In this document: in pieces, positions 12,978-17,603 of the stretch
Position numbering within the stretch: position 1 is the stretch's first letter
Layout of the letters: every line of letters starts with the position of its first letter
Assembly: GCA_050331235.1 (NCBI GenBank)
Contig: JBHJHA010000028.1
Span: 1-20,854, forward strand
Direction of reading: 5' to 3'
Length of the DNA: 20,854 nt
DNA from: Leptolyngbyaceae cyanobacterium
Lineage (GTDB): Bacteria > Cyanobacteriota > Cyanobacteriia > Phormidesmidales > Phormidesmidaceae
Notes under the pieces: model-generated
What the model saw: only the letters and a program-made list of their open reading frames with translations
Databases searched by the model: none
Told to the model about the DNA's origin: nothing
Translations under genes and position numbers: made by a program

Positions 12978-13011
12978 CTCCTCCTGGCAATCAAGCGATC
13001 GCCAGGAGGAG
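12978..13011 (-). terminator. 11-bp inverted repeat hairpin, likely terminator of the small peptide gene
   Basis: CTCCTCCTGGC-N12-GCCAGGAGGAG, followed by TTTCTAT on the minus strand. It lies 49 nt past the peptide stop, between convergent genes. Confidence 0.6.
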
Positions 13012-13060: not shown

Positions 13061-13240
13061 TCAAGCAGTATAAACTGCATCTTTGTCGAGGTTCTCGCGA
13101 CGCAGTTCATCAAAATCAACGGCGTCCTTGTCCAAATTCTCCTGACGTAATTCATCAAAGTCAACTGCGGCATAAGTAGCCGGAGCAATGGCGATTGTCA
13201 CTGCGGTTAAGGCGGTGAGGGCAAGTGCAAGGCGTTTCAT
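13061..13240 (-). CDS. 59-aa secreted small protein with two tandem 15-aa repeats (absent from ORF track)
   Basis: Manual translation: MKRLALALTALTAVTIAIAPATYA-AVDFDELRQENLDKD-AVDFDELRRENLDKD-AVYTA*. AGGAG RBS just upstream, Sec-type signal peptide, and repeat copies that differ mostly by synonymous changes. Confidence 0.85.
   Translation of the reverse strand: MKRLALALTALTAVTIAIAPATYAAVDFDELRQENLDKDAVDFDELRRENLDKDAVYTA
13073..13168 (-). repeat. 45-bp coding tandem repeat, 2 copies plus a partial third
   Basis: GCAGTTGACTTTGATGAATTACGTCAGGAGAATTTGGACAAGGAC / GCCGTTGATTTTGATGAACTGCGTCGCGAGAACCTCGACAAAGAT / GCAGTT. Confidence 0.9.
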
Positions 13241-13631
13241 AATTTGAACTCCTGTCGCTTGAGCGACTTAATCATCTTGATTTCTATATTGGAGCTCGTT
13301 CCTGAAGCTGCCCTGACCGCCAAATAAGCTATCCCTAATCGGTTCTTGAGAAAGCTGAGCGATCGCTGACTACAACCTGGACACACCCGTTGATATAGCA
13401 GAGGGCCGGAAGGTGGCGGGGCAAAAGTGTAGAGGCGGCTCTCGCCGCAGGTGACCATCGATTGCAACTGACTTCGGTTAGCAATCAGTTTGAACAGCAT
13501 CCGTCCGAACGGTCTAGCAAACAGAAACCGTAGGAAGCCTGAGCCGCAAATGGCACTGCGCCCAAGTCGGCCTTTGAAGACATATCCGCAGTCACCTTTG
13601 TCACGATTTCAGATGCCCGCGAAATCGGAGA

Positions 13632-15083
13632 TTATTCGCGATCGCGATTGCGCAGGGCTTTAGCTTTCACCGCCAAATCCCGGAAAAAGTCAGTGTCGAC
13701 GATTTCTTTGACCTGCTGGTTACGCTTATTCTCATCGATTTCGACCCGTAGCTTTTGCACCTGGAGTCGGAGCCGCTGTTCTCGCTGTTGCACCTCTGCC
13801 GCCATTTTTTGAAAAATGCGGGCCAACTGGCCAATTTCATCCTGACGGGTGCTCGCCGCCTCCAACTGCTGTGGATCGAAAGCGTTAACTTCAATATCTG
13901 CAGCAGCCTGAGCAATATTCATAATCGGCCGGGCAACCAGGCGCTCCGCCAAAAAAATGGCTACGACAGCAATCCCCCCGGTAAATATGACTACTCCAGC
14001 TAGGAGTCGTCGCTTATTACGATCAATGCTGGCCGTATAAGTCGATTCAGGAATCACAGTGCCCACTGTCCAGTCTAGTTGGCCCAGCGGAGTCAGAAAA
14101 ATGTGATAGACCTCTCCAGAAACGGGCTCTGTGTGGATATAGCGCTGCCACGCCTCCAAAGAGATCGTGTCAAATTCTTGGTTTTCCAACACTTCGCTGG
14201 CGTAGCGCAATAAGGGATTACTAACCGCTGAAAATTGAGTGAGGTCAGCAGTAGCTCCGGCCGACGTTTGATCTGGCGTGACTTCAGCTTTGTCGCTGGA
14301 GGCAATCAGCTCCTGTTGAGAATTAATGATAAAAGTCTCACCAGGGCGATCGCCCTGCAATTGTTCTAAATAATCGGAAAGCTGATTGAGTTCGATCCCC
14401 ACTCCAATTACTCCCTGGAGCTCGTCGCCAGACTCGACGGCCTTCGTCATGTCGATCCCCGGTGTTCCGGTAGAGCGATAGACATACACCGTCCAAGAGC
14501 GCTGGTCGCCGCTGGAGGCAGCACCCTGATACCACGGTCTTTCTGGCGCGTAGTAGGGCGGGCTCATCTCATAGGTACGGTTCTCGATGAATGTCAAGTC
14601 TTCATTATTGAGGCGGTAGGTATTGACCGTGGCCAGCGTCGTATCTGACTCGGCGTCCCAGTCGCGATCGTGGTAGTGCAGCTCACTATCACTGATCCGC
14701 TGGGCTCCTAAAAAGTCTCCGTTAGCATCGCCATATTGCACCCAGGTAAACGCGGGCGCGGCAGCCAACAAATTAAGAAAAAAGAATTCGCGATTTTGCG
14801 CATCGGATAAATCTAACAAACCTTTGCTGAGGCTAGATTCAATTAACTGCTGGGCTGATTCGGCATTGCTAAATAAGCGTTCAACCTCCTTAGTCGTACC
14901 GACAGCAATTTCCTTATTGGTCTGGTCAACAATCGTGTTGATGTTGCGTTTAGAAATCCAAGACCAGGGAAGATATACCATGGCGGCTGTCGCTGTCACC
15001 GTCAACAACATCGCACTGAGTAGAGTCGCCTTGAGGCTCAGTGAGGGACGAGTTTTCGGCAGTAAGGAAGCGTTGCGGGTCAT
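13632..15083 (-). CDS. Membrane sensor: TM - dCache-like periplasmic domain - TM - HAMP - short coiled-coil tail
   Basis: TM1 (LLSAMLLTV...), Cache motif YYAPERPWYQGA, GVIGVGIEL..LS.YL, WTVGTVIPES, TM2, HAMP (RPI...RQDEIGQLARIFQKM). No kinase, MCP or cyclase domain. ATG at 15083 preferred. Confidence 0.85.
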   Translation of the reverse strand: MTRNASLLPKTRPSLSLKATLLSAMLLTVTATAAMVYLPWSWISKRNINTIVDQTNKEIAVGTTKEVERLFSNAESAQQLIESSLSKGLLDLSDAQNREFFFLNLLAAAPAFTWVQYGDANGDFLGAQRISDSELHYHDRDWDAESDTTLATVNTYRLNNEDLTFIENRTYEMSPPYYAPERPWYQGAASSGDQRSWTVYVYRSTGTPGIDMTKAVESGDELQGVIGVGIELNQLSDYLEQLQGDRPGETFIINSQQELIASSDKAEVTPDQTSAGATADLTQFSAVSNPLLRYASEVLENQEFDTISLEAWQRYIHTEPVSGEVYHIFLTPLGQLDWTVGTVIPESTYTASIDRNKRRLLAGVVIFTGGIAVVAIFLAERLVARPIMNIAQAAADIEVNAFDPQQLEAASTRQDEIGQLARIFQKMAAEVQQREQRLRLQVQKLRVEIDENKRNQQVKEIVDTDFFRDLAVKAKALRNRDRE

Positions 15084-15894
15084 GGGGCAGAGCAATGATG
15101 GTCCGTTGAGCGAGCAAGCAACCGGCGATCGCACAGACGCTCTATGAAAATGCTACCGGGTACAAAGAATGACTGAGTTTGATTTGAGCGGGAGGAGACG
15201 ACCCTTTTCCCTTCATATCTCGTTATTAAAACTGGTGCCTACACTGCGGCTACGAATGGGATGTTGCCTAACGATTTACGCCAGCCCCTCAATGGGTAGA
15301 GATAACTTGAAGCCTGGAGTTTGTTCCATTCACTCTGTAAGAACGGCATGCAACCTTATCTTGCCCAATCATGCGCTGAGTTCATAGTTGTCATATACCA
15401 ACACTGCAAAGTCTTCATAAAGACCGGCTTCATCACCCTGACTGCGCTTTTTCTTAGCTTAAGCCTTTTTATTTAGGATTTAGGAGGCTACGGCGCTTTC
15501 TAACAGGTTCGTAGGTGGGTCACATCCTAGTTAGATTTGTTACTCACTGACCAGTTAGCGTTTTCGGCCTGTCACGCGGGGCTTCCGTCACCTTTTTCCA
15601 GCTCGGGATTAACGGGTTAGTCATGAGTCTCTATTTCTACAGAAGAGAAAATCGCGAACGCGATACCCCGCCCCTATCCACAAATTGCTCTTTCTCGAGG
15701 TTTAAGGTGAGCATTCCAAGCCGCGATCACCAGCGCTATTTGTCGAGTTGGCCGAGTTGGAATCAGGCAGATTTGCGGTGATTTCCCGAACTGCTTGGGT
15801 ATTCTAATGTCAGCCATACCGTTGAAGTCGGCTCGGCACCGTAATTTCGGCACCGCGTTCTATTAAATTAGCAATCCACTTGGGGAGTTTGAGA

Positions 15895-16889: not shown

Positions 16890-17603
16890 TTGCTTGTGTC
16901 AGCTTCGTCCCCTTCCGCCCAAGAGATTCAACAACTATTTGATCGGATTGCCCCGGTCTACGACGACTTCAATCAACAGTTGAGCTTGGGGTTACACCAG
17001 GTTTGGAAACAGATGGCCGTTGATTGGTGCGACGCTCAAACTGGCGATACTTGTTTGGATGTCTGCTGTGGCAGCGGCGATTTGGCGCTCCTGTTAGCGC
17101 ATCGCGTCGGAACCACAGGACAAGTCTATGGATTAGACTTTGCAGCGGCGCAACTGGCGATCGCCCGGCAAAAAGCGGCGGCTAAAGCCCGACTATCGGC
17201 AGTGCACTGGATCGAAGGAGATGCCTTGGCTCTCCCCTTTGAGGATAACCAGTTTGATGCCGTAACCATGGCCTATGGCTTACGCAACCTGACTAACCTT
17301 TCCCAGGGCTTATCGGAAATTCGGCGGGTGCTCAAGCCCGACGCTAAGGCGGCCATTTTAGATTTTCATCGCCCGGCTTCCCAGTGGCTGCAGCAGTTTC
17401 AACAGTGGTATTTAGCCACGGTGGTTGTCCCCGCGGCCCAGCGCTGCGGTCTGACAGAAGAATATGCCTATATTGCCCCCAGTGTTGATCGCTTTCCGGC
17501 CGGTGCTGAGCAGGTGAGTCTGGCTCGCACCGTAGGATTTACAGCGGCGACCCATTTTCCGTTGGCCGGTGGGTTAATGGGAACCCTTGTTATCACTAAA
17601 TAA
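16890..17603 (+). CDS. menG: Demethylphylloquinol / demethylmenaquinone methyltransferase (UbiE/MenG family)
   Basis: FDRIAPVYD..N..LSLGLH, LDVCCGSGDL, GDALALPF, YGLRN, RVLKP, LDF. Start is TTG 16890 or GTG 16896. Confidence 0.92.
   Translation: MLVSASSPSAQEIQQLFDRIAPVYDDFNQQLSLGLHQVWKQMAVDWCDAQTGDTCLDVCCGSGDLALLLAHRVGTTGQVYGLDFAAAQLAIARQKAAAKARLSAVHWIEGDALALPFEDNQFDAVTMAYGLRNLTNLSQGLSEIRRVLKPDAKAAILDFHRPASQWLQQFQQWYLATVVVPAAQRCGLTEEYAYIAPSVDRFPAGAEQVSLARTVGFTAATHFPLAGGLMGTLVITK

Follow-up and report, generated by a model that had tools for sequence, protein, structure and literature searches.

The window analyzed here is a 20,854-nucleotide stretch of DNA from a Leptolyngbyaceae cyanobacterium (GenBank assembly GCA_050331235.1, contig JBHJHA010000028.1). 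Its minus strand carries a gene for a 59-aa precursor, with the following features, listed in the direction of transcription:

13298..13352, minus strand: five T[C/T]A[G/T/A] boxes with an exact 11-base period, predicted operator array of the OmpR/PhoB family
13283..13288, minus strand: −10-like hexamer TATAGA of putative function, conserved in the promoter alignment
13249..13253, minus strand: ribosome-binding site AGGAG, 8 bases 5' of the ATG
13061..13240, minus strand: precursor gene, 59 aa, a short Sec-type repeat-core member of type A (ORF and homologues)
13169..13240, minus strand: predicted Sec signal peptide, residues 1-24 (sequence, hydropathy, alignment A1)
13127..13165, minus strand: core 1, residues 26-38, 13 aa, predicted helix (core alignment; AlphaFold helix 28-38)
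13121..13126, minus strand: Asp-Ala spacer from core 1 to core 2, the commonest spacer
13082..13120, minus strand: core 2, residues 41-53, 13 aa, predicted helix (core alignment; AlphaFold)
13064..13081, minus strand: C-terminal tail, the truncated start of an inter-cassette linker (relatives' linkers; L053)
12978..13011, minus strand: intrinsic-terminator-like hairpin (stem and folding test)

The precursor gene and its flanks

The open reading frame, the ribosome-binding site, the signal-like N terminus, the two acidic repeats, and the terminator are all present as described in an earlier reading of this DNA (the original prediction). The N terminus consists of MKR, a hydrophobic stretch (9-residue hydropathy peak of 2.3), and P-A-T-Y-A24, from which, on the basis of the −3/−1 rule, we infer a signal-peptidase cut after Ala24. 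The two 15-mers each carry six D/E versus two to three K/R residues and differ at nine synonymous bases versus one replaced codon (two bases), with a pS of 1.06 and a pN of 0.06 (binomial p = 1.6e-5). The gene is real and under selection, and the claim of selection on the peptide is borne out by these counts. The downstream hairpin combines a 15-bp stem and, on the minus strand, a T tail; its folding z is −5.3, with none of 200 shuffles equally stable. AlphaFold returned three helices without packing for the 59-mer (pTM 0.26), and the hydrophobic moment of the core is low (0.10-0.26). An overlapping 87-codon ORF (13237-13500), which spans the promoter, was set aside.

No family had been recognized for the precursor, and our searches agree: Pfam, Rfam, and PDB sequences gave no significant match, the best ESM Atlas score (0.80) was at chance level, and NCBIfam returned a single sub-threshold match, to the MXKDX repeat protein TIGR02953 (20.9 bits, cut-off 41), the precursor having no Met repeats.

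Two details of the repeat architecture had to be redrawn. The unit had been given as AVDF...LDKD; the double-glycine paralogues described below read GG followed directly by VDFD, and therefore the core starts at Val and the unit is VDFDELR[R/Q]ENLDK plus a DA spacer. What had been taken for a partial third copy, AVY, is a cut-short linker: between cassettes, relatives have linkers that begin in this way and read DAVYEVLAKG (21 times) or DAVYEVVAA (7 times). The gene is the minimal form of the architecture, with one doublet and a truncated linker.

The neighbors of the gene are not a conserved module. A TPR gene and msrA recur beside one fetched locus (L053, encoding a 171-aa relative with eight cores), and a DUF7662-HTH gene lies beside eight loci that represent a single syntenic position shared by kin. 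Immediately upstream of the precursor gene (13632-15134, minus strand) is a gene for a dCache-HAMP membrane protein with a coiled-coil end and no output domain; it has a paralogue on C50 and was found beside no other fetched peptide locus.

A family of repeat-core precursors

A word-based homologue search confirmed 54 proteins out of 55 candidates, and a profile search retrieved 117 representatives at E ≤ 0.001, the last few being unrelated low-complexity proteins. With the 35-residue mature part as query, matches were found in 63/173 genomes of the taxonomic family and in all 13 genomes of the genus, with dozens of matches in some genomes and a maximum of 46. A scan of the collection confirmed 180 of 196 stretches, of which the best 80 were examined. 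The family has no Pfam or NCBIfam model. Among 23 pattern matches to the core on viral contigs, none was confirmed.

Homologues and variation in repeat number, both anticipated for such a precursor, are present in the family. Among type A precursors that have more than one core (84 of the Sec type and 26 of the double-glycine type), the number of cores ranges from 2 to 15; single-core forms occur too. Across 605 cores, the F, D, L, R, E, N, L, and K positions are 95%-100% fixed. An Arg-Arg pair sits inside the core and is replaced by Arg-Gln in 25% of cases; Cys, Trp, and Tyr are absent from all 605, Ser is found in 38, and Thr in 25. The mature regions of type A contain 0.2% His and no Met or Cys. 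The DA spacer was counted 244 times in Sec precursors and 32 times in double-glycine ones.

Neighboring cores within 108 precursors have a pN/pS of 0.14. Among the loci of the genome studied here, pS ranges from 0.71 to 1.11 and pN from 0.11 to 0.16 (uncorrected counts). Silent sites are thus near saturation and replacement sites are not, so recent copying does not explain the similarity within this genome.

The idea of a multi-core precursor survives in part. Homologues with 2-15 cores support it, and the double-glycine leader is repeated inside precursors, which implies the release of short units. Its other half, cleavage between KD and AV into monomers, is not supported: type A cores occur mostly as doublets (232/282 Sec runs and 36/38 double-glycine runs). 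In type C, the last core of double-glycine precursors stands alone, and the product may therefore be monomeric in that type. Lys is the final core residue in 544/551 type A, 43/43 type B, 28/32 type D, and 21/59 type C cores (these counts cover types A-D, the type E pattern being without matches). A Lys-directed cut of the cores is possible and, given the type C figure, not general.

Lineage types and the two export routes

Five core types were recognized across at least four families: A, to which the gene in the window belongs, B (RLEHLD-like), C (RFDEAR-like), D (EEF-GLGNK-like), and E. Two routes out of the cytoplasm carry them. The second export route and the upstream operator were both missing from the original prediction. 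The genome has four intact core loci and one decayed: two Sec-type loci, on C28 (the gene at 13061-13240) and C37, two double-glycine loci, on C2 and C34, and a remnant on C82. At the sequence level, the precursors have export and processing signals.

Both routes carry the same core type in 23 of 24 genomes, as judged by the higher scores of double-glycine cores against the Sec precursors of their own genome than against those of any genome of another type; since kin have types in common, these are fewer than 24 independent tests. The exception, G332, combines type D double-glycine cores with Sec cores of type A, which lie on a contig of 1,062 bases. In a separate case (L244 of G400), cores resembling type C and cores resembling type D occur together in a single Sec precursor, which may be an intermediate between the types.

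The C2 precursor, which contains an internal repeat of its double-glycine leader, is divergent from genes for a two-cNMP-domain protein, a short HlyD-like protein, a C39 peptidase transporter, and a second transporter. The scores of this cassette against the respective cut-offs were 257/161 for TIGR03896, 1105/853 for TIGR03796, and 999/709 for TIGR03797, and the Cys and His motifs of the C39 peptidase are present. The gene at 13061-13240 has no TIGR03796 or TIGR03797 transporter as a neighbor.

TIGR03896 scored above its cut-off in 65/173 genomes. At the best 30 of these loci, a family precursor was found in 22 cases; of the other eight, seven have at most 504 upstream bases and one has its precursor beyond the cassette. 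Upstream of 40 further short-HlyD cassettes, there were 19 family precursors, 4 unrelated double-glycine peptides, and 17 cases with no precursor within the fetched stretch, several of which are cut by contig ends.

The fusion protein of these cassettes (the short HlyD-like protein) is 184-240 aa long in 25 of the 26 loci, among the matches listed, in which it was called; the only 516-aa form among them has no family precursor in its 19 kb. The C2 protein, with 192 aa, scores 66 bits against TIGR03794 (cut-off 156). Both ends of the short protein align to the ends of the 516-aa form, while the central ~290 residues are gone, and no lipoyl or HlyD Pfam match was obtained. Full-length matches in open frames of 194-254 aa numbered 53 in 52/401 genomes of the class. 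A single-sequence structure model was too poor for use (pLDDT 44). Without its center, the protein would not reach an outer-membrane channel; it would probably not bridge the outer membrane, and both routes would end in the periplasm. Together with this loss of the center, the presence of the same core behind Sec and double-glycine signals suggests that in a Gram-negative cell a peptidase transporter can serve the periplasm. Furthermore, in five genomes (one closed), Sec precursors are present and no TIGR03796 match exceeds the cut-off, so the Sec route stands alone there.

Other double-glycine precursors, unrelated to the family, lie beside the same type of cassette or beside family precursors (L305, L306, L309, L320, L203:16987-17244, and L218:2025-2231); they have Pro/Asp-rich cores and, in one case, an Arg/His-rich tail. 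In one instance (L148:9705-15361, G167), genes for a caspase-domain protein and a CHAT protease were found beside an orphan double-glycine precursor.

A shared operator and candidate sensors

The five-box array followed by TATAGA aligns in 80 of 101 non-redundant upstream regions of Sec-type genes, types B-E included, and the five-box matrix fits none of 72 double-glycine upstream regions. Direct repeats of 7 + 4 bases are the binding mode of OmpR/PhoB regulators in the accessible text of PMC4832192 (see also PMC2275107), and we predict that the array is an operator of this family. A matrix built from 14 promoters of the other core types, with the register set by the first matrix, ranked C37 first (26.1) and the gene at 13061-13240 second (25.6) in the genome; the highest control scores were 20.0 for three shuffles and 22.1 for wrong periods.

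In the Sec promoters of G061, G063, G064, and G102 (L405-L408), GAACGC/TAACGC repeats at 10-11 bases replace the family boxes. The kinase operon of G061 retains the original boxes, and a joint switch of peptide and kinase promoters, tested in this subclade, was not borne out.

A three-box scan gave scores of at least 15 for 9 of 2850 upstream regions and for none in shuffles. These matches include a Cys-repeat lipoprotein; just below the threshold are a secreted protein of EF-hand-like type and a DM13 protein. DM13 genes were also found in 10 of 28 cassette regions (clustering) and in that on C2; yet they occur in only two of five test genomes.

On C18 (near 16122, minus strand), a 70-aa predicted lipoprotein with repeated ADPCA motifs had the second three-box score (18.8) and is a possible metal-binding member of the regulon. 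A 58-aa secreted protein with one EF-hand-like loop (L358:2173-2349; relative in L203) has the same boxes and no NCBIfam match at 1e-10. The decayed peptide gene on C82 (~17259-17593, minus strand; L004:8260-8600) lies between tsaD and the DUF7662-HTH gene, at a site occupied in relatives by an intact precursor; its five-box array persists in weakened form (score 20.6). On C17 (near 74235, minus strand), a gene with a noise-level five-box score (14.7) has a start that we take to resemble an HtrA-type protease, and it is a lead to a possible processing enzyme.

A two-box form precedes an operon on C80 for a HAMP kinase and an NblR-like regulator. The kinase is found in 141/173 genomes, and in the best 30 loci, mostly of close kin, it is always preceded by the two boxes, with a mean score of 11.7 versus 6.0 for shuffled sequences and 7.8/6.9 at wrong periods. 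A second box pair lies on the opposite strand of the kinase loci; facing it in many relatives is arsS, an arsenosugar radical SAM gene divergent from the kinase operon (L355:1828-2853). In G061 and G134, the kinase and a precursor are no more than ~4 kb apart. The putative periplasmic domain of the kinase covers residues ~42-188, and its best NCBIfam match is the heavy-metal sensor subfamily (216, cut-off 293). No kinase orthologue was found in G062, G063, and G064 (99%-100% complete), which retain type A peptides.

In type B loci (L191, L202, L203, L204, L218, L223, and L327), a NarL-type regulator and a CHASE2 kinase adjoin the precursors. Only type B genera that are related to one another show this linkage, and the two CHASE2/NarL pairs of the genome studied here have no precursor alongside.

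A proposed role in signaling

Our preferred reading, to which we give a probability of roughly 45%, is that the core is a lineage-specific envelope ligand of fixed shape in a two-component signaling loop. An OmpR-family regulator, probably the NblR-like one on C80, would bind the five boxes and turn the gene on. Sec export and the predicted cut after Ala24 would free the 35-residue core doublet into the periplasm, and the paralogues, whose gene layout we observed, would bring the same doublet by means of the double-glycine leader and the C39 transporter. The core would bind the sensor domain of a membrane kinase and so feed back on the loop, with the C80 kinase as the first receptor candidate and the CHASE2 kinase as that of the type B lineage. 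With so many cores in a gene and so many genes in a genome, the dose would increase. A broader proposal appears less likely to us: in filamentous cyanobacteria of several families, a helical, unmodified core, multiplied up to fifteen-fold in a precursor and across many loci, would arrive at the envelope along two independent routes, be sensed by a conserved kinase, and induce its own Sec-type genes through the five boxes, with lineage dialects that serve quorum or kin sensing in mats.

The boxes are common to the Sec genes and the kinase operon, are not on the double-glycine genes, and are replaced in one subclade. They also precede other envelope genes, and on this point an effector of envelope stress fits equally well: a peptide induced by a two-component system, largely uncut, that acts as a multivalent periplasmic binder of a protease, misfolded protein, or hard cations and is not itself sensed. 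CpxP and SilE are induced by their sensors in this way. The strongest operator of the genome lies on the precursor genes, the three-box matches and near-matches described above include the Cys-repeat, EF-hand-like, and DM13 proteins, and the best NCBIfam match of the kinase is a heavy-metal sensor. The peptide is kept where the kinase was lost (G062-G064), and in the five genomes without TIGR03796 above cut-off long polyproteins may stay whole. However, the recurrence of the double-glycine leader inside precursors implies that short units are released, the mature type A regions are poor in His and devoid of Met and Cys, and the sharing of lineage-specific core types between the two routes is easier to reconcile with a co-evolving partner than with an ion. 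We rate the signaling ligand above the stress effector, which we consider unlikely.

It is improbable that the cores are made in bulk and assemble outside the cell into a matrix or a biofilm, in the manner of EbfG1-4 of Synechococcus elongatus. Small proteins exported through double-glycine leaders and a C39 transporter enable biofilms in a cyanobacterium, according to the accessible text of PMC4997328, the copy number is high (up to 46 matches per genome), and a cellulose-synthase-like gene lies near the C2 cassette. Nevertheless, mature EbfG1-4 are described in the same text as having no homologues in other cyanobacteria, the cores are predicted to be helical and are highly charged, and the stunted fusion protein argues against the crossing of the outer membrane.

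Lower still stands a modified RiPP or a bacteriocin with a tailoring enzyme encoded elsewhere. RiPP-type precursors had been named as a parallel in the original prediction, and the cassette is of the NHLP type that the accessible text of PMC2887384 links to RiPP precursors; amide cross-links between Lys and Asp/Glu are conceivable. A modified RiPP is not supported: no recurring tailoring enzyme lies beside the peptide and cassette loci examined (84 mostly Sec loci and 28 cassette loci), YcaO was found in none of five genomes in a search whose control worked (in the ATP-grasp search, the controls gave no match), and the cores offer no Cys, Trp, or Tyr and few Ser or Thr. Moreover, the Sec-exported copies have no leader of the kind a maturase would need, and the cores are acidic and invariant, unlike the hypervariable NHLP cores.

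The calcium-binding alternative of the original prediction fares worst in its helix-loop-helix form, since the doublet junction LDKDAVDFDEL, although it resembles the 12-residue calcium loop of EF-hands minus three residues and doublets dominate type A, yields the loop pattern in 0/187 precursors and no Pfam match, is missing from types C-E (type C double-glycine precursors ending in a single core), and forms no packed pair in the AlphaFold model (pTM 0.26).

If the signaling ligand is the right reading, the core would belong to an undescribed peptide-signaling loop of cyanobacteria. The family bears on signaling in mat-forming cyanobacteria, on orphan double-glycine peptides, and on group V cassettes, and it offers testable handles: short peptides that can be synthesized, five natural types, a named candidate kinase and regulator, and a sharp operator.

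Comparison with known systems

Like the precursor of yeast alpha-factor, a fungal multi-core system, the core precursor places nearly identical cores in tandem, with X-Ala spacers, behind a signal peptide; unlike alpha-factor, it has no flanking dibasic site, its Arg-Arg lying inside the core.

Streptococcal pheromones combine a double-glycine precursor, a peptidase transporter, lineage types, a nearby kinase/regulator, and a direct-repeat operator. All five features have parallels here, the receptor being putative. On the other hand, the host is Gram-negative, there are several cores per precursor and a parallel Sec route, and the operator is on the Sec copies, not on the double-glycine ones. 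The streptococcal examples are ComC/CSP and BlpC, exported via ComAB/BlpAB (see 10.1101/783472 and PMC7595303).

Within cyanobacteria, EbfG1-4 and PteB of S. elongatus also pair small double-glycine proteins with a C39 transporter; in what is accessible of PMC4997328, however, they are described without repeats, without cyanobacterial conservation, and without a Sec twin.

The cassette is the three-gene NHLP/NHLM transport cassette (TIGR03794/03796/03797; Haft et al. 2010, PMC2887384, accessible text), which is also that of the group V bacteriocin clusters (Wang et al. 2011, PMC3140520, accessible text). The double-glycine paralogues are divergent from the same C39 transporter pair and two-cNMP-domain gene. 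Table S3 of PMC3140520, in its accessible part, contains S7335_2492, an acidic group V "NHLP" precursor of 58 residues that is compatible with type B in length and charge, so that a double-glycine member has probably already been catalogued, as a putative bacteriocin. The differences concern the fusion protein (184-240 aa here versus about 420-520 aa) and the cores, which here are repeated and invariant, have no Cys and no recurring tailoring enzyme beside the loci examined, and have Sec-exported twins. The NHLP leader model TIGR03793 matched neither the 13061-13240 protein nor its C2 paralogue and scored 19.7 (cut-off 50.9) with a type C member. The CTB bacteriocin model NF038167 gave 31.8 bits (cut-off 32) with the C2 paralogue, mainly on the leader, 32.6 bits with one type C member, on leader residues, and no match with the 59-aa precursor. 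The accessible portions of PMC2887384 and PMC3140520 do not mention repeats or signal peptides.

The core motifs had no match in the searchable literature, which covers few subscription journals, and the literature searched by topic contained no description of the family. From its sequence features, we place the core family outside the NHLP, MXKDX, and EF-hand families, and in its apparent way of working it resembles known peptide-pheromone and multi-core systems.
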